64,000 nt of DNA from Escherichia phage KIT06: the sequence record OQ349392.1. The stretch is one strand, 5' to 3'. The position numbers and the translations under genes were made by a program. Positions 24,822 through 32,335 of the stretch are shown piece after piece. Numbering within the stretch: the stretch's first letter is position 1; the number at the start of each line of letters is the position of its first letter. The notes below the pieces were generated by a model that had not been told where the DNA came from, did not search any database, and saw only the letters and a list, made by a program, of their open reading frames with translations.

Positions 24822-25235
24822 ATGAAATTAGAAGATCTTCAAGAAGAATTGAAGAAAGATGTGTTTATAGATTCGACTAAATTACAGTATGAAGCAGCTA
24901 ATAATGTGATGTTATATAGTAAATGGCTTAATAAGCATTCAAGTATTAAAAAGGAAATGCTTAGAATTGAAGCACAGAAAAAAGTTGCTCTTAAAGCTAA
25001 ATTAGACTACTACTCGGGACGAGGAGATGGTGATGAATTTAGTATGGATCGTTATGAAAAATCAGAAATGAAGACAGTTCTATCAGCTGATAAGGATGTT
25101 TTAAAAGTTGATACTTCATTACAATATTGGGGAATTTTATTAGATTTCTGTAGCGGAGCTCTTGATGCTATTAAATCACGCGGATTTGCTATTAAGCATA
25201 TTCAAGACATGCGAGCATTTGAGGCTGGAAAATAA
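24822..25235 (+). CDS. uvsY: Recombination mediator UvsY, 137 aa
   Basis: 137-aa ORF downstream of classic MotA-box middle promoter; synteny with 25 and uvsW. Confidence 0.9.
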   Translation: MKLEDLQEELKKDVFIDSTKLQYEAANNVMLYSKWLNKHSSIKKEMLRIEAQKKVALKAKLDYYSGRGDGDEFSMDRYEKSEMKTVLSADKDVLKVDTSLQYWGILLDFCSGALDAIKSRGFAIKHIQDMRAFEAGK

Positions 25236-25459
25236 TGAGATATAGCATTGATGATGCTTTTAATTATGAAGAAGAATTTGAAACGGAAATTCAATTCTTA
25301 ATGAAAAAGTATAATCTCAAGCGTCAGGATATTCGTATCCTGGCCGACCACCCATGCGGTGAAGATGTCCTTTATATTAAAGGAAAATTTGCCGGATATC
25401 TTGATGAATATTTTTATTCTAAAGATATGGGCATTGATATGCATATGAGAGTTATATAA
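25235..25459 (+). CDS. Hypothetical protein (uvsY.-1 position), 74 aa
   Basis: ORF track; coupled to uvsY stop. Confidence 0.6.
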   Translation: MRYSIDDAFNYEEEFETEIQFLMKKYNLKRQDIRILADHPCGEDVLYIKGKFAGYLDEYFYSKDMGIDMHMRVI

Positions 25460-25462
25460 ATA
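25455..25462 (+). promoter_or_regulatory. TATAAATA late promoter upstream of the 55-aa Cys-rich ORF
   Basis: Exact motif overlapping the upstream stop codon, 26 nt before ATG 25488. Confidence 0.45.
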
Positions 25463-25487
25463 GATATATAATTTAGAGGAGACAATC

Positions 25488-25655
25488 ATGTCAGATAAGA
25501 TTTGTGTTGTCTGTAAAACTCCAATCGATTCTGCATTGGTTGTTGAAACAGACAAAGGTCCTGTGCATCCTGGGCCTTGTTATAATTACATTAAAGAACT
25601 ACCAGTTTCAGAAAGTTCGGAAGAACAATTAAATGAAACACAACTTTTGCTATAG
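25488..25655 (+). CDS. Small Cys-rich hypothetical protein (uvsY.-2 position), 55 aa
   Basis: ATG at 25488 after AGAGGA SD, open to TAG 25653-25655; contains CVVC...GPCYNY (possible zinc ribbon); followed by terminator hairpin. Below ORF-track size cutoff. Confidence 0.5.
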   Translation: MSDKICVVCKTPIDSALVVETDKGPVHPGPCYNYIKELPVSESSEEQLNETQLLL

Positions 25656-25678
25656 TGTGACCTTTAGTCTATAGTTTT

Positions 25679-25712
25679 GGCCCTTCCTTTTTGGTTGGGC
25701 CTTTTTTAATTT
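25679..25712 (+). terminator. Intrinsic terminator: GGCCC...GGGCC hairpin plus TTTTTTAATTT at end of uvsY operon
   Basis: 5-bp GC stem, 13-nt loop, 6-T run. Confidence 0.55.
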
Positions 25713-25941
25713 AAAAGCTTTCTTCTACTTCATCGTCTGAATCTTCTAATTCAGCTCTTTTTCCTGCCAAAGCATCTCTCACAGAGATGTCATCAGTATC
25801 TTTTAATTCAGTTTCTTTAACTCTTTTCTTGTAATAAGCTTCAAGTTCTTCTAGACCTTCTAATGTTTGACAAGAGGCAATTTTACCCATAAATTCATCA
25901 ATAGAAGCTTCATAAAGAAATTGTTTAAATTCTAGTAACAT
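25711..25941 (-). CDS. UvsW.1 small helicase-associated protein, about 76 aa
   Basis: ORF track 25711..25953 starts at TTG; ATG at 25941 with GGAG SD; sits immediately downstream of uvsW. Confidence 0.65.
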   Translation of the reverse strand: MLLEFKQFLYEASIDEFMGKIASCQTLEGLEELEAYYKKRVKETELKDTDDISVRDALAGKRAELEDSDDEVEESF

Positions 25942-25966
25942 CTTTTTCTCCAAAGGGCCGGAGCCC

Positions 25967-27478
25967 TTATAAATTAACTGTTTTCATTACGTAATTAAAT
26001 TTTTCATCTGCGTAGCGCTGAATACGATCAATGCCGTGTTTTAAAAGATAGTTCAAATGAACGTATTTCTTTTTCGTATTAGCAGATTTTGGTCTAACGC
26101 CCGCGTCATCTATAAGATCCCAGACCGTTGCGATTGTTTTAGAACCATGCTTACGTAATACGCGACCTATTGTTTGCAATACAATAATTTTAGATTTAAC
26201 ACCGTGTGCTAAAACAACGTGATGCAGATTTTTAACTGAAATACCGGTAGAAAATACACCATAACTAGCTACTATAATTATTCCTTTACCGTTTTCAGCT
26301 AAGGTTTTCATTACGTTGCGTGTTTCGGTATCAACTTCCCCTGATACGTAATAAACTTTATCGTATTCATTTTTAATTAAATCGAAAATAGCTTTACCGT
26401 GCGATACGTGTTTAAACATGACAAAAGCGTTTTCATCTTTTTGCGCAAGTTTAATAGCTAATTTAGCGATCCATTTATTTCTTTTACTGAGCCCAGTAAT
26501 AATTTTTATTTCTTCTTGGTAAGTTTTTCCCTTTAATTTAGTAGTGAACTCATCGGGATAGCGAAGAAAAATACTATTAATTTTTAACTCAGTTACTTGT
26601 CCATCTTCCATTAATTTAGAAGTCGTTACTGGCTTAAATATTTCACCAAACATTCCAACATACTGCATGATATTAGCTTTGCCATCACGTAATGAACCAG
26701 ACAAACCAAATTTAAACATACAGTTATTTAAACCTGATATGATAGATGAAATACTTTTTCCTGTAGCAAGATGGCATTCATCATTCATCATCATTCCAAA
26801 CTGTGAGAACCATTCTTTTGGTTGTTTTACTACAGTTTGCCATGTACCAACAACGACTGGTGCATCATTTTTATATTTATCATCTTTTGATGCTCCACCA
26901 CCGATTTTCTTTATCATTGCATGACTGAATAAACGATAGTCAACAAAGTCATCAGCCATCTGAGTTGTCAGAGCAGTTGTTGGAACAATGATAAGAATTT
27001 TACCTTCATAATTTTCCAAATAATAACGTGCAAGCAAAGCTTGAATTAAAGATTTACCTGCGGATGTTGGAAGATTAAGAATTCTACGACGATTAACTAA
27101 TCCTTCGAACACTGCATCTTTTTGATACCAGTGTGGTTCAATTCTTTTATTTCCTGAATAGATTTCTAATTTAGAAAGCCATTCATCAAAATCTTTTCTT
27201 GATAATTCTTCTTTTTCGTTAATCTGTGGGTCAATCCAAGCTTTATAGCCAAAGTTATCGCAGAACTTTTTAATTTGCCCGACTAAGCCGAATGGAAGAA
27301 GGCGATTATAATCTAAAAGACGGATTCGTCCATCCCAGTGGCCATATTTGTACTTCGGATTAAAACGATACCCATCAGCTTCAAAGCTAAAGAAATCACG
27401 GAGTTCATGAAATGTACTTTCTTCACAATCAATTCTCACGTGACTAAAATCATAAAAATGTACTTTAATGTCAGTCAT
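25967..27478 (-). CDS. uvsW: UvsW SF2 DNA/RNA helicase, 503 aa
   Basis: Walker A LPTSAGKSLI, DECH box (MMNDECHLATG); length and synteny as T4 UvsW. Confidence 0.9.
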   Translation of the reverse strand: MTDIKVHFYDFSHVRIDCEESTFHELRDFFSFEADGYRFNPKYKYGHWDGRIRLLDYNRLLPFGLVGQIKKFCDNFGYKAWIDPQINEKEELSRKDFDEWLSKLEIYSGNKRIEPHWYQKDAVFEGLVNRRRILNLPTSAGKSLIQALLARYYLENYEGKILIIVPTTALTTQMADDFVDYRLFSHAMIKKIGGGASKDDKYKNDAPVVVGTWQTVVKQPKEWFSQFGMMMNDECHLATGKSISSIISGLNNCMFKFGLSGSLRDGKANIMQYVGMFGEIFKPVTTSKLMEDGQVTELKINSIFLRYPDEFTTKLKGKTYQEEIKIITGLSKRNKWIAKLAIKLAQKDENAFVMFKHVSHGKAIFDLIKNEYDKVYYVSGEVDTETRNVMKTLAENGKGIIIVASYGVFSTGISVKNLHHVVLAHGVKSKIIVLQTIGRVLRKHGSKTIATVWDLIDDAGVRPKSANTKKKYVHLNYLLKHGIDRIQRYADEKFNYVMKTVNL

Positions 27479-27507
27479 GTCTAAATACCATGTAATAAAT
27501 ATATCTA

Positions 27508-27515
27508 TATTTATA
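27508..27515 (-). promoter_or_regulatory. Late promoter TATAAATA (minus strand) for uvsW
   Basis: Plus strand reads TATTTATA about 30 nt upstream of the uvsW start. Confidence 0.5.
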
Positions 27516-27528
27516 CTGAGGAAATATT

Positions 27529-28209
27529 ATGATAGATAAAGATTATATTGCAGAGCTGAAGGCTCTTGATGATAATAAAGAAGCTAAGGCTAAATTAGCT
27601 GAATATGCTGAACAGTTTGGTATAAAGGTCAAAAAGAATAAATCTTTTGATAATATCGTTAATGATATTGAAGAAGCCCTCCAGAAGCTCGCTAGTGAAC
27701 CTATGCCAGAGACTGATGGGTTATCTATTAAAGACTTAATCAATGCTGCTGATGCTGCAGAGGGATTAAAATATGACGATGAAGAAGTCAATCCAGAGGC
27801 AGCACTTCTGATTGATTCTCCGGTTAAATCTGATATTAAAATTGAAGTAGTCGAAACGGATAAAATTCCTGAAAATACCGATGTTTTGATTGAAGATACT
27901 CCTTTTGTTGAAGAAAAATTCGAACAGGCTGTAGCTGAGATTATTGAATCTGAAAAGCCGTCTGTATTTACTCTTCCGGAAAACTTTAGTCCGAATCTTC
28001 AGCTGATTGGAAAAAATCCAGGATTCTGCACTGTTCCTTGGTGGATTTACCAGTGGATTGCTGAAACTCCGGATTGGAAATCTCACCCAACTAGTTTTGA
28101 ACACGCGTCGGCACATCAAACTTTATTTAGCTTAATTTATTACATTAATCGCGACGGATCAGTTCTAATTCGTGAAACACGCAATTCTTCTTTCGTAACA
28201 TTAAAATAA
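27529..28209 (+). CDS. inh: Inh-like protein (inhibitor of prohead protease), 226 aa
   Basis: 226-aa acidic ORF directly upstream of hoc, as in T4; identity by synteny and length. Confidence 0.75.
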   Translation: MIDKDYIAELKALDDNKEAKAKLAEYAEQFGIKVKKNKSFDNIVNDIEEALQKLASEPMPETDGLSIKDLINAADAAEGLKYDDEEVNPEAALLIDSPVKSDIKIEVVETDKIPENTDVLIEDTPFVEEKFEQAVAEIIESEKPSVFTLPENFSPNLQLIGKNPGFCTVPWWIYQWIAETPDWKSHPTSFEHASAHQTLFSLIYYINRDGSVLIRETRNSSFVTLK

Positions 28210-28218
28210 GGATAACTT

Positions 28219-29070
28219 ATGGCTTTTACAGTTGATATAACTCCTAAAACACCTACTGGAGTTATAGATCAGACTCAGCAGTTTACTGCTACACCCAGTG
28301 GTGAAACTGGAGGTGGAACTATTACCTATGCTTGGACTGTAGACGATGTTCCACAGGATGGAGCTGAAGCAACTTTTAGTTATGTACTAAAAGGACCTGC
28401 CGGTCAAAAGACTATTAAAGTAGTTGCAACAAACACAGTTCCAGATACTGATGCTGAAACAGCAGAAGCTACTACAACTATCACGGTTCAAAATAAGACA
28501 CAGACAACTACCTTAGCTGTAACTCCTGATAGTCCTGCTGCTGGAGTGATTGGAACTCCTGTTGAATTTACTGCTGCTTTAGCTTCTCAACCATCAGGCG
28601 CATCTGCTACGTATCAATGGTATGTAGATGATTCACAAGTTGGTGGAGAAACTAACTCTACATTTAATTACACTCCTTCCACAAGCGGAGTTAAAACAAT
28701 TAAGTGTGTGGCTCAAGTAACCGCGACAGATTATGATGCAAAGGAAGTTACTTCGAATGAAGTATCACTGACTGTGACTGATAAAGTTGCTCCAGAACCA
28801 GAAGGTGAACTACCTTATGTTCATCCTCTTCCACATCGTACTTCAGCTTATATCTGGTGCGGTTGGTGGGTTATGGATGAAATCCAAAAAATGACTGAAG
28901 AAGGTAAAGATTGGAAAACTGAAGATCCAGATAGTAAATACTACCTGCATCGTTACACTCTTCAGAAGATGTTGAAAGACTATCCAGAAGTTGATGTTCA
29001 AGAATCACGTAATGGATACATCATTCATAAAACTGCTTTAGAAACTGGTATCATCTATACCTATCCATAA
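28219..29070 (+). CDS. hoc: Hoc outer capsid decoration protein, short form (two Ig-like repeats plus capsid-binding domain), 283 aa
   Basis: Two tandem Ig-like repeats (TPKTPTGVIDQTQQFTATPSG... and TQTTTLAVTPDSPAAGVIGTPVEFTAALAS...) followed by VAPEPEGELPYVHPLPHR...GIIYTYP capsid-binding tail as remembered for T4 Hoc. Confidence 0.85.
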   Translation: MAFTVDITPKTPTGVIDQTQQFTATPSGETGGGTITYAWTVDDVPQDGAEATFSYVLKGPAGQKTIKVVATNTVPDTDAETAEATTTITVQNKTQTTTLAVTPDSPAAGVIGTPVEFTAALASQPSGASATYQWYVDDSQVGGETNSTFNYTPSTSGVKTIKCVAQVTATDYDAKEVTSNEVSLTVTDKVAPEPEGELPYVHPLPHRTSAYIWCGWWVMDEIQKMTEEGKDWKTEDPDSKYYLHRYTLQKMLKDYPEVDVQESRNGYIIHKTALETGIIYTYP

Positions 29071-29074
29071 TCTA

Positions 29075-29100
29075 AGGGGCTTCGGCCCCTTTCTTCATTT
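29075..29100 (+). terminator. Terminator hairpin AGGGGC-TTCG-GCCCCT plus T-rich tail after hoc
   Basis: 6-bp GC stem, UUCG loop, followed by TTCTTCATTTT. Confidence 0.6.
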
Positions 29101-29158
29101 TGAAAGCACACAAAACACAATCAGAAAACGATGTATATAATGGCACCAACTCGATAAC

Positions 29159-29374
29159 ATGAGATTGATTATGAGAACTGAGGTTGTGGTGTTTACACTC
29201 CATGAGTCTGGAAAGTCATTCATTGAAATTGCTCGTGAATTGAACTTACAGGCAAAAGAAGTGGCTGTATTATGGGCTCGAGCTATGACTGCTAAGAATA
29301 AATTTGAGACTCGAGAAAAAGTTGTCTATAGAAAAAGACATATTAATAAAAAGGTGAAAAATGGAACAGTATGA
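29159..29374 (+). CDS. Hypothetical small protein with helix-turn-helix-like segment, 71 aa
   Basis: ORF track; segment GKSFIEIARELNLQAKEVAVLW resembles an HTH. Confidence 0.55.
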   Translation: MRLIMRTEVVVFTLHESGKSFIEIARELNLQAKEVAVLWARAMTAKNKFETREKVVYRKRHINKKVKNGTV

Positions 29375-29639
29375 TCTTTATGAAAATGAATCTTTTGCTA
29401 ATCAATTACGCGAAAAAGCGCTTAAAAGTAAACAGTTTAAACTAGAGTGTTTTATCAAAGATTTTTCGGAACTTGCTAATAAAGCAGCTGAGCAAGGTAA
29501 AACATATTTTAGTTATTATTGTACCGCTCGTGATAAATTGATTACTGAAGAAATTGGTGATTGGCTGAGAAAAGAAGGATTTAGCTTTAAAGTCAATAGT
29601 GACCAGCGTGATGGTGATTGGTTAGAAATTACATTTTGA
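29361..29639 (+). CDS. Hypothetical protein, 92 aa
   Basis: ORF track; overlaps upstream stop. Confidence 0.6.
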   Translation: MEQYDLYENESFANQLREKALKSKQFKLECFIKDFSELANKAAEQGKTYFSYYCTARDKLITEEIGDWLRKEGFSFKVNSDQRDGDWLEITF

Positions 29640-29648
29640 GGATTAATT

Positions 29649-30653
29649 ATGTTTAAAAAGTATAGCAGTCTTGAAAATCATTATAATTCTAAATTCATTG
29701 AAAAACTTTATAGTTTAGGATTGACTGGCGGCGAATGGGTAGCTCGTGAAAAGATTCATGGTACAAATTTCTCACTGATTATTGAGCGTGATAAAGCAAC
29801 TTGTGCTAAACGTACTGGACCGATTCTTCCTGCTGAAGATTTCTTTGGGTATGAAATTATTCTAAAGAATTACGCTGATTCCATTAAAGCAGTACAAGAT
29901 ATTATGGAAACTTCGGCAGTTGTATCTTATCAAGTCTTCGGCGAATTCGCTGGACCTGGCATTCAGAAGAATGTCGATTATGGTGATAAAGATTTTTATG
30001 TATTTGACATTATTGTTACTACAGAAAGTGGTGATGTGACTTATGTCGATGATTATATGATGGAATCATTCTGTAATACATTCAAATTTAAAATGGCTCC
30101 ACTTTTAGGTCGCGGTAAATTTGAAGAGCTTATTAAATTGCCAAATGATTTAGATTCTGTCGTCCAAGATTATAATTTTACAGTAGACCATGCCGGATTA
30201 GTTGATGCAAATAAATGCGTCTGGAATGCCGAAGCAAAAGGCGAAGTATTTACCGCTGAAGGTTATGTATTGAAACCTTGTTATCCTTCTTGGATGCCTA
30301 ATGGCAATCGTGTAGCTATTAAATGCAAGAACTCTAAATTTAGCGAAAAGAAAAAGTCTGATAAGCCTATTAAAGCTAAAGTTGAACTGTCAGAAGCTGA
30401 TAACAAGCTGATGGGAATTTTAGCTTGTTACGTTACACTGAACCGAGTAAATAACGTTATTTCTAAAATTGGCGAAATTGGTCCAAAAGATTTTGGAAAG
30501 GTGATGGGACTAACTGTTCAAGATATTTTGGAAGAAACTTCTCGTGAAGGTATTACTCTAACTCAAGCGGATAATCCTTCTTTAGTTAAAAAGGAATTAG
30601 TTAAAATGGTACAAGATGTACTTCGTCCGGCTTGGATTGAATTGGTAAGTTAA
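29649..30653 (+). CDS. rnlB: RNA ligase 2, 334 aa
   Basis: [21 protein letters not shown]... with ligase motif I KIHGTN; matches remembered T4 Rnl2. Confidence 0.95.
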
Positions 30654-30660
30654 ATAAAAA

Positions 30661-30687
30661 GGGACCTTTCGGTCCCTTTGTTTTATT
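30661..30687. terminator. Bidirectional terminator GGGACC-TTTC-GGTCCC between convergent rnlB and gene 24
   Basis: 6-bp stem followed by TTTGTTTTATT on plus strand and A/T-rich on minus. Confidence 0.6.
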
Positions 30688-31966
30688 CATCAACGATAAT
30701 TTTTGGTAGCTTAACACCTAATAAAACAGACAAATCTGAACGACCCGCCATTTTATCCATGTCTCCGCCATCAATTATTCTTGCTTCTTTTTCGTCTTTT
30801 GCTACAGTGTAAGGATTTGCAGATAAAGCATATCTAACCAATAAACCGATAGATGGCTGCAAACTTTCTGGATCAACTACAACTTTAAATGCACCTACAT
30901 GTTCAGGGTCATCTAAGTCAAGACCTTCTGTATACGGAGCATAGAAAATTGATCCGACAATTTCTTTTTCACCAATATTTTCTACTACACCAACGATTAC
31001 ATAATCTAATGGGCTGTTAGTATCGCAATAAAGCGGTAAACCATTAGCTAAGAACCCGTAGGCATTTTGTGAAAGATATTTATCATCTTCTGGTTTATGT
31101 TTTAACCAACCTGATGCAGCAAGAATCGCAGCGGCACGAGCTGAAGCAACACAGAACGTTGCTGTATAAGTTGATTCTTTTTGGATATGCGAAACCATTT
31201 CACATACCATTCGGTATAATGAACGACCGGCTTCAGGTGCAGATGCATAACTCAAATCAATGAATCCGGTATCAGTAATTCCTGTAACTTTATAGCGTTT
31301 TGACACTGTAATCAAAGACTGTAGAATATCTTTATTGATTTCATCCGCCATTTCAGTTGCAAGCAAATCTTCCAAGAAATTAGGAGCATCGAATCCATTT
31401 GCTTCTAAATCTTGTGCTAATTCAACTGTGATGCCAGTTTTAAGTTTACGAGATTTGACTGAAGTTTGCCATTTATTAATCTGGAATCTAGCATCAGCAA
31501 TTTCGCTATCAGAGCTTTCAAATTTGCTCGTTGACGCTGCATCAGAAAATAGACGAACCTTTAAAAGAACAATTGCAATCTGAAGAGCTAGTTCTAAATC
31601 GCTTTCTTCAATGGTAGCAAATGGTGTATCTTCTAATACTTTATAAACGATATTATTGTATTTGAATAAATCGCCTTTATTGAGAGTTAATTTAGACTCT
31701 TCTGTTAATTCTGTGATTTGTTCTCGGTCTACATATCCAGCTTCGCCAGCGTAAGTAGCACCAGTTTTAAATGTAAATTCATTATCTGGGTTAAGGTATT
31801 TGATACCATAAAAAGCAGCAACAGGTTGATTAGTTCTTTGCGTTGCTACAATGTCAGAATATATTAATTTAGTGGTAGCGCGAGTCAAAGCAACGAGATT
31901 TGGGCGACCGATTGAGTTGCTATTCGTTGTGGTTGATTCGCGCAGAAGTTCGTTGATTTTAGCCAT
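30683..31966 (-). CDS. 24: Head vertex protein gp24, 427 aa
   Basis: 427-aa paralog of major capsid protein; late promoter upstream; synteny. Confidence 0.9.
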   Translation of the reverse strand: MAKINELLRESTTTNSNSIGRPNLVALTRATTKLIYSDIVATQRTNQPVAAFYGIKYLNPDNEFTFKTGATYAGEAGYVDREQITELTEESKLTLNKGDLFKYNNIVYKVLEDTPFATIEESDLELALQIAIVLLKVRLFSDAASTSKFESSDSEIADARFQINKWQTSVKSRKLKTGITVELAQDLEANGFDAPNFLEDLLATEMADEINKDILQSLITVSKRYKVTGITDTGFIDLSYASAPEAGRSLYRMVCEMVSHIQKESTYTATFCVASARAAAILAASGWLKHKPEDDKYLSQNAYGFLANGLPLYCDTNSPLDYVIVGVVENIGEKEIVGSIFYAPYTEGLDLDDPEHVGAFKVVVDPESLQPSIGLLVRYALSANPYTVAKDEKEARIIDGGDMDKMAGRSDLSVLLGVKLPKIIVDE

Positions 31967-31994
31967 TGCGCTTTCCTTGTTGAGAGTATATGTT

Positions 31995-32002
31995 TATTTA
32001 TA
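31995..32002 (-). promoter_or_regulatory. Late promoter TATAAATA (minus strand) for gene 24
   Basis: Plus strand TATTTATA about 29 nt upstream of gene 24 start. Confidence 0.55.
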
Positions 32003-32007
32003 AAAGT

Positions 32008-32038
32008 TGTTTACAGCAAGGTTATCACATGTTACTAT
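32008..32038 (+). promoter_or_regulatory. Early-type promoter candidate (GTTTAC ... TACTAT) for the 88-aa ORF
   Basis: gtttac at 32008-32013, -10-like tactat about 19 bp downstream; ends ...aacatgaggag like the 54-bp repeat cassette. Confidence 0.4.
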
Positions 32039-32068
32039 AGACCTATCAAAAACATGAGGAGATTAAAA

Positions 32069-32335
32069 ATGAACAAGTTAAACTTTATTCGTACTACTCT
32101 GTCCGCTCTTGATAAAGACATCAAAGCCCTGGTAGAAAAATATGGTTCCAATCCTAACGGTAATGCAGTGAATGCCCTAGTTAAGAAATATGAAACCATG
32201 GCTTATGCTACTGACTTCTGGTGGAACGGTGAATATTCTACCCATACCAAAGACAAATCTGGTAACTGGCTGAAAATCCAAGAAAATCGTATTGACTTCC
32301 GTGACATCATCAACCGTCGAGTTAAGATTGCGTAG
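32069..32335 (+). CDS. Hypothetical protein in the 23-24 intergenic gap, 88 aa
   Basis: ORF track 32054..32335; ATG at 32069 has GAGGAG SD; early-like promoter upstream; strong hairpin downstream. Confidence 0.5.
   Translation: MNKLNFIRTTLSALDKDIKALVEKYGSNPNGNAVNALVKKYETMAYATDFWWNGEYSTHTKDKSGNWLKIQENRIDFRDIINRRVKIA

Follow-up and report, generated by a model that had tools for sequence, protein, structure and literature searches.

A natural short hoc allele in Escherichia phage KIT06, very probably derived by one deletion of Ig-like domain 3

The hoc gene of Escherichia phage KIT06 encodes a Hoc protein with two Ig-like domains instead of the three found in T4. It is very probably a genuine, heritable short allele, which arose by one deletion of domain 3 and was spread by recombination; its product would form a shorter fibre that most likely binds mucin. 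Hoc is the display scaffold of T4 and the basis of the 'bacteriophage adherence to mucus' model, and natural changes in the length of its fibre are therefore relevant to phage therapy and vaccine design. This relevance has been recognised before: how the domain-3-less protein is built, that it occurs in nature, and what it does have all been published for phage PNJ-9, whose Hoc was described as 'lacking Domain 3' (Fu et al., J Virol 2024, PMC11853027; GenBank PQ100635), and KIT06 hoc represents this known natural variant. A preliminary description of the KIT06 sequence had implied that the form was new; this part of it did not hold, as a Hoc without domain 3 occurs in six other GenBank phages and the PNJ-9 form has been both published and characterised. 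The present work makes modest additions to the PNJ-9 study: we map the junction to the nucleotide, present evidence that carriers in two genera share a single founding deletion, and give a rough census of hoc genes with two to five Ig domains. The window analysed here is a 64,000-nt stretch of KIT06 DNA (sequence record OQ349392.1), and KIT06 coordinates refer to it.

The hoc gene, its locus and its domains

KIT06 hoc is located in the canonical T4 position, between inh and the T4 24.x/rnlB genes, and the synteny is kept in the loci of relatives. The gene and its adjacent features are the following:

27529..28209, + strand: inh (inhibitor of prohead protease), an ORF adjoining hoc upstream; syntenic genes are annotated in relatives, and the inh-hoc order is conserved
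28219..29070, + strand: hoc short allele, 283 aa, ATG to TAA, with two Ig-like domains and a capsid-binding domain
29074..29100, + strand: intrinsic-terminator-like hairpin AAGGGGCTTCGGCCCCTT followed by a T-rich tail, with a 7-pair stem including 5 GC pairs, directly 3' of the hoc stop

The hoc product is KIT06 protein P0032 (100% identity), and in HMMER it matches the PDB chains of T4 Hoc with E = 8.5e-176. The identity of inh follows from Pfam Phage_Inh_N/C matches on a Logan contig identical to the KIT06 locus. The genes are arranged in the order uvsW (divergent, upstream), inh, hoc, two small ORFs, rnlB, and a 427-aa ORF of the gp23 family, which by its T4 position is gene 24. Terminator-like sites are enriched in the 2-kb region, with five present and 0.7 expected. 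No exact plus-strand match to the T4 late promoter TATAAATA occurs directly upstream of inh or hoc, and a late-promoter-like sequence with one mismatch, AATAAATA, is located near 27494-27501.

The surroundings of the gene vary among relatives. The uvsW gene directly adjoins inh in KIT06 (intergenic region 27479-27528), BYEP01, and IME339. In T4, the homing endonuclease gene segE is found in the region upstream of hoc, and in EP01 a homing endonuclease gene lies directly upstream of inh. Some database records match only from query position 93 onward, which probably reflects the presence or absence of a homing-endonuclease gene upstream. On the other side of hoc, BYEP01 is without about 600 nt of rnlB (KIT06 29910-30515, inside rnlB at 29649-30653), and its RNA ligase is annotated with only 381 nt; this gap is a second deletion polymorphism in the hoc neighbourhood.

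Three regions can be recognised in the KIT06 Hoc protein:

28219..28497, + strand: Ig-like domain 1 (D1), aa 1-93, aligning with T4 Hoc 1-93; AlphaFold2 beta-sandwich with pLDDT 89-96; 99.6% nt identity to IME339 D1
28498..28773, + strand: Ig-like (PKD-type) domain 2 (D2) up to T185, aa 94-185, aligning with T4 D2; Pfam PKD match at 99-161; includes S183-L184-T185
28780..29067, + strand: linker and C-terminal capsid-binding domain, aa 188-283, equivalent to T4 Hoc 281-376

T4 Hoc has 376 aa (5vf3_Z and four other PDB entries), encoded by a CDS of 1131 nt (KJ477684), which is the length given in the preliminary description. In HMMER, residues 1-190 of KIT06 Hoc pair with T4 1-190 and residues 191-283 pair with T4 284-376, the latter being near-identical. 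MAFFT alignments of both protein and DNA place a single clean in-frame gap of 279 nt (93 aa) in the KIT06 gene relative to three-Ig hoc genes, and this gap corresponds to Ig domain 3 (D3). In the comparison with the close three-Ig relative IME339, identity in the sequence bordering the gap amounts to 96.7% on one side and 97.9% on the other. Between the Ig units that remain, aa 1-93 and aa 94-187, protein identity is 42.5%. D2 scores 25.0 bits against the Pfam PKD profile, for which the gathering cut-off is 23.5, and AlphaFold2 models both units as confident beta-sandwiches (pLDDT about 90), with the last strand of D2 (182-187) intact up to the junction. Foldseek searches with KIT06 Hoc return tandem Ig/FnIII pairs, including RB49 Hoc (3shs).

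The C-terminal domain is modelled poorly by AlphaFold2 (pLDDT below 50) because the underlying alignment is shallow, consisting of 23 sequences. Its fold is instead assigned by sequence identity to the solved T4 Hoc, in which residues 281-376 were fitted into a cryo-EM map as the capsid-binding domain (PMC10385173). The last 288 nt of the coding region are 95-99% identical to every hoc gene examined, including that of T4. Thus, the earlier reading of two repeats of about 93 aa followed by a capsid-binding domain is borne out by HMMER, Pfam PKD, and AlphaFold2, and the proposed clean loss of the third repeat proves to be exact and in register. The KIT06 gene is intact and probably functional.

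The junction and the nature of the deletion

28771..28782, + strand: deletion junction, ACT (T185, D2) / GTG ACT GAT (V186 T187 D188, D3 end), with 279 nt of domain 3 absent compared with three-Ig alleles

The codons at the end of D2 and at the end of D3 were read in 11 hoc genes from phage records and in 16 environmental contigs; for the valine codon, the sample comprised 29 long-type D2 ends, out of about 680 records. Long-type D2 ends have the form ...TCN YTN ACN GTT AAT AAR AA, in which valine is encoded by GTT 27 times, by GTA twice, and by GTG not once (n = 29). D3 ends consist of GTA ACT or GTG ACT followed by GAT AAA GTT GCT C, and GTG-ACT-GAT-AAA-GTT-GCT-C is the natural D3 end of pSs-1 and of the sequences L012 and L025. 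All seven short alleles read ...TCA CTN ACT GTG, and the KIT06 sequence GTG ACT GAT AAA GTT GCT CCA GAA is identical to the D3 end of pSs-1, letter for letter. Because GTG is found in every short allele and never at the 29 long-type D2 ends, the sequence from V186 onward is assigned to D3, and the codons place the junction at D2 ...S183-L184-T185 / V186-T187-D188-K189-VAP. This breakpoint, ...SLT/VTDKVAPEPE, is four residues upstream of the position ...TVTDK/VAPEPE suggested previously.

HMMER pairs the segment 'sltvtdk' of D2 with 'nvtvtak' of D3, which indicates that the event was in register. The dinucleotide GT is the sole identity at the crossover. Homologous recombination between similar repeat ends, which the preliminary description considered the probable cause of the loss, was rejected for this reason: the DNA sequences of D2 and D3 are unalignable, their longest common word is 10 nt, and just GT is common to both breakpoints. 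Homologous recombination is still plausible for changes in the number of D2 copies. The loss of D3 itself looks like an illegitimate (non-homologous) deletion, which survived because it was domain-precise.

The short alleles differ from one another at codon 187, which is ACT (T187) in KIT06 alone and AAT (N187) in the six others, a difference of one base. KIT06 carries the unmodified junction, and the codons indicate that this is the founding sequence. Residues S183, L184, and T185 are located directly at the mapped junction, and the T187/N187 difference is two residues away from T185.

Two readings would do without a deletion in nature. Domain gain does occur in hoc, as four- and five-Ig forms contain extra copies of D2, and the two-Ig form might accordingly be regarded as ancestral, with domain 3 being a later insertion on the branch that gave rise to T4 and most of its relatives. 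This is highly improbable, since after T185 the short alleles match the D3 end (GTG ACT GAT) and not the D2 end (GTT AAT AAG), so that a remnant of D3 is present. Moreover, the short form makes up about 1% of the records, its sequences fall inside the diversity of the 3-5-Ig forms (88-99% identity), and three Ig domains are also present in RB49, a distant relative (3shs; PMC10385173). It is even less credible that the assembler collapsed the tandem Ig repeats of a Hoc that in truth has 376 aa. This concern had been raised because of the internally repetitive nature of hoc; in addition, the KIT06 genome was assembled from short reads only (SPAdes, 2x301 MiSeq reads, 153x coverage; PMC11274021), and several database records show hoc in pieces, suggesting errors in this gene. 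However, D3 has no word longer than 10 nt in common with D2 or D1, which leaves nothing to collapse, and 301-nt reads at 153x coverage would cross the junction. A different assembler (Logan, run SRR17680687) produced a contig 100% identical to positions 25219-32070, with 0 mismatches in 6852 nt, although this run may come from the same phage stock and would then be an independent assembly only, not an independent sample. The same junction is present in six other genomes from different laboratories, and the domains of PNJ-9 Hoc have been expressed with the boundaries 12-109, 92-187, and 188-283 (PMC11853027). Given the dissimilarity of D2 and D3, the identical Logan assembly, and the six further genomes with the junction, we conclude that the short hoc gene is not an assembly artefact, and a collapsed repeat is effectively excluded.

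In a separate observation, hoc is annotated as two or three CDS pieces in SCS4, ECML-134, IME537, FriedrichMiescher, and T2 PV958097 ('Hoc part 1 / part 2', 'x2', 'x3'). These split annotations could correspond to real frameshifts or insertions, or to sequencing or assembly errors in repeated D2 copies.

Carriers of the short allele and length polymorphism of hoc

An 852-nt hoc gene with the junction at the same codon was found in six other GenBank phages. BYEP01 and EP01 are Tequatrovirus phages from pig farms in China, while PNJ-9 (China, sewage), AV112 and AV113 (Denmark, wastewater), and RPN187 (Thailand) belong to Mosigvirus. The motif SLTV-x-DKVA marks the point at which D2 meets the linker and capsid-binding domain in all short carriers.

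The junction codons make a single origin of these alleles likely. One founding deletion and one ACT>AAT substitution would explain all seven, while two deletions need an extra GTT>GTG change. An alternative is that the short alleles arose more than once, with the T-type (SLTV-T-DK) and the N-type (SLTV-N-DK) being independent deletions one codon apart. KIT06 is the only carrier with ACT at codon 187, the AAT of the other six is also the codon of the D2 end, and if selection favours deletions that are domain-precise, the same boundary could be used repeatedly. Nevertheless, we consider recurrent deletion unlikely: an N-type end taken from D2 would have to acquire the GTG valine codon, which is common to 7/7 short alleles and found at 0/29 long-type D2 ends, and there is nearly no microhomology to drive a repeat deletion at the same nucleotide. 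A single origin followed by one C>A change suffices.

The haplotype of D2 was also considered as a marker of single origin and was abandoned, as it is not exclusive to the short alleles: CM8 and KFS-EC3, with 3- and 4-Ig hoc genes, match the D2 3' end at 97%. For this reason, the argument for one founding event rests on the junction codons.

In the comparison of Tequatrovirus with Mosigvirus (KIT06 27529-29374 against PNJ-9, AV112, and APCEc01), hoc is 92% identical at the nucleotide level and its C-terminal domain 97%, and the values for the neighbouring genes are 73.5-74.5% (inh) and 67.7-68.2% (downstream small ORF). Lateral transfer specific to the short allele was rejected as an explanation. 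The three-Ig hoc of the Mosigvirus APCEc01 is equally close, which means that the conservation across genera belongs to hoc in general and not to the short allele. The nearest relatives of KIT06 hoc also differ by domain, D1 being 99.6% identical to that of IME339 and D2 being closest to those of EP01 and PNJ-9. This pattern of identities suggests that hoc is exchanged piecewise across genera.

In close relatives, Hoc proteins of 283, 376, 472, and 568 aa occur, corresponding to 2, 3, 4, and 5 Ig domains. A census was made on an evenly spaced sample drawn from the 683 matching phage records, in which 37 records covered the whole query; approximately 25 of these were of the three-Ig form, about nine of the four-Ig form, about three of five-Ig size, and none of the two-Ig form. 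The three-Ig form is thus the commonest, the four-Ig form is common, the five-Ig form occasional, and the two-Ig form rare. A strict junction query returned five records and, together with BYEP01, the two-Ig form is found in 6 of about 680 records, or about 1%. When IMG/VR and JGI metagenomes were scanned for the junction, no match was obtained, and the controls yielded only 4 and 12 long-type T4-like contigs, respectively; since the control contigs are so few, these scans show only that the short allele is not common. The variation in repeat number postulated in the preliminary description is therefore real, and it is functionally relevant (PMC11853027).

Despite nucleotide differences of 4-12% between them, the short alleles are all intact. 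Their pairwise dN/dS ranges from 0.11 to 0.33 across the gene as a whole, and from 0.03 to 0.24 in the C-terminal domain. These values point to purifying selection on the short alleles, but hoc is mosaic, and part of the low dN/dS may be due to recombination import from long alleles. The deletion could also be real but neutral or mildly deleterious, tolerated in a non-essential gene and without any change in fibre binding. Hoc is indeed dispensable under laboratory conditions (PMC10385173), few records carry the short form (6 of about 680, with none in the IMG/VR or JGI scans), and S183-T185 are conserved in long alleles too. On the other hand, the short allele has persisted in intact form in two genera through 4-12% divergence and at the dN/dS given above, and the short Hoc of PNJ-9 is functional in mucus adherence, through a domain other than that used by the four-domain Hoc of PNJ-6 (PMC11853027). 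We therefore regard neutrality as the less probable reading, though one with somewhat more in its favour than repeated origin, and prefer that of a maintained, functional short allele.

The short fibre and its comparison with known Hoc proteins

The preferred explanation can be outlined as a sequence of steps. An ancestral hoc gene with three or more Ig domains would have lost exactly domain 3 in a single non-homologous deletion of 279 nt that preserved both the register and the reading frame. The last beta-strand of D2 (...EVSLT) would thereby have been joined to the end of D3 (VTDK) and to the linker and capsid-binding domain (VAPEPEGE...). The short Hoc would dock on capsomers through its unchanged C-terminal domain, and in view of the near-identical capsid-binding domain we infer that, like T4 Hoc, it binds as one copy at the centre of each gp23* hexamer of the mature capsid. 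One Ig domain is about 40-45 Å long. The fibre of KIT06, being one Ig domain shorter, would reach roughly 135-140 Å, compared with about 180 Å for T4 Hoc (PMC10385173). Recombination would then have carried the short allele through Tequatrovirus and Mosigvirus phages, the original junction being kept in KIT06 and T187N being added in the six other carriers. In a more tentative extension of this scheme, which we regard as possible but not probable, a junction allele of single origin, whose founding sequence KIT06 preserves, passed by recombination between the two genera and stands at one end of a 2-to-5-domain length polymorphism under niche-dependent selection on mucus reach and on the Ig domain used; besides shortening the fibre, the loss of D3 would move the glycan-binding site to the D2 strand abutting the capsid-binding domain.

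The best characterised counterpart is PNJ-9 Hoc, which mediates adherence to intestinal mucus via MUC2. In that protein, MUC2 is bound by Domain 2 (N92-N187) but neither by Domain 1 nor by the non-Ig domain 4 (D188-Q283), and S183, L184, and T185, together with fucose residues on MUC2, are required for binding (PMC11853027). Like the KIT06 protein, PNJ-9 Hoc has 283 aa arranged as D1, D2, and the capsid-binding domain, with the junction at the same codon, and the two are 92.4% identical at the nucleotide level and 90.1% at the amino acid level. S183, L184, and T185 are kept in KIT06 Hoc and are invariant across the alignments. KIT06 differs from PNJ-9 in having T187, P192, and a C-terminal P in place of N187, Q192, and a C-terminal Q. 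Additionally, the D1 sequences are 86.7% identical in nucleotides, the phages represent different genera (Tequatrovirus and Mosigvirus), and their flanking genes are 68-74% identical. Because of T187 instead of N187 and a D1 with about 87% nt identity, the PNJ-9 binding data may not transfer exactly. By analogy with PNJ-9, the KIT06 fibre most likely adheres to fucosylated MUC2 via S183/L184/T185 of domain 2. KIT06 was isolated from duck intestine, and the paper reporting its genome makes no mention of Hoc (PMC11274021).

In comparison with T4 Hoc (376 aa; 5vf3, 8t1x; UniProt P18056 according to PMC10385173), KIT06 hoc shows 86.6-88.2% nt identity in D1 and D2 and 95.1% in the C-terminal domain, and both genes follow inh. 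T4 domain 3 (approximately T4 186-278 by the mapped junction) is absent from KIT06 Hoc. This missing domain contains D246, the site of the mucus-adaptive D246N mutation of T4 Hoc (cited in PMC11853027).

Another group of related proteins consists of the longer Hoc forms, such as those of pSs-1 (472 aa, L004:1320-2738) and ESh26 (568 aa, L003:1320-3026); further four- or five-Ig forms are found in L013, L019, L023, and L024. The pSs-1 and ESh26 proteins have the same D1, D3-end/linker, and capsid-binding domain as KIT06 Hoc, and contain one or two added tandem copies of D2. These copies are 76-80% identical to each other in nucleotides, which is compatible with homologous unequal exchange, whereas the unit missing from KIT06, D3, is unrelated and was lost non-homologously.

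Hoc has been summarised as containing 'three variable Ig-like domains', and strings of 1 to 10 Ig domains on a conserved capsid-binding domain are known across phages (PMC10385173, Fokine et al. 2023). Among them are second Hoc-like proteins, namely that of Serratia phage Muldoon, with 314 aa and two Ig domains, and that of Enterobacter phage PG7, with 233 aa and one Ig domain (PMC10385173). Similar to KIT06 Hoc, these short proteins have fewer Ig domains on the conserved capsid-binding domain. However, the Muldoon and PG7 forms are additional paralogues in distant phages, while in KIT06, a close relative of T4, it is the sole hoc gene that has been shortened.
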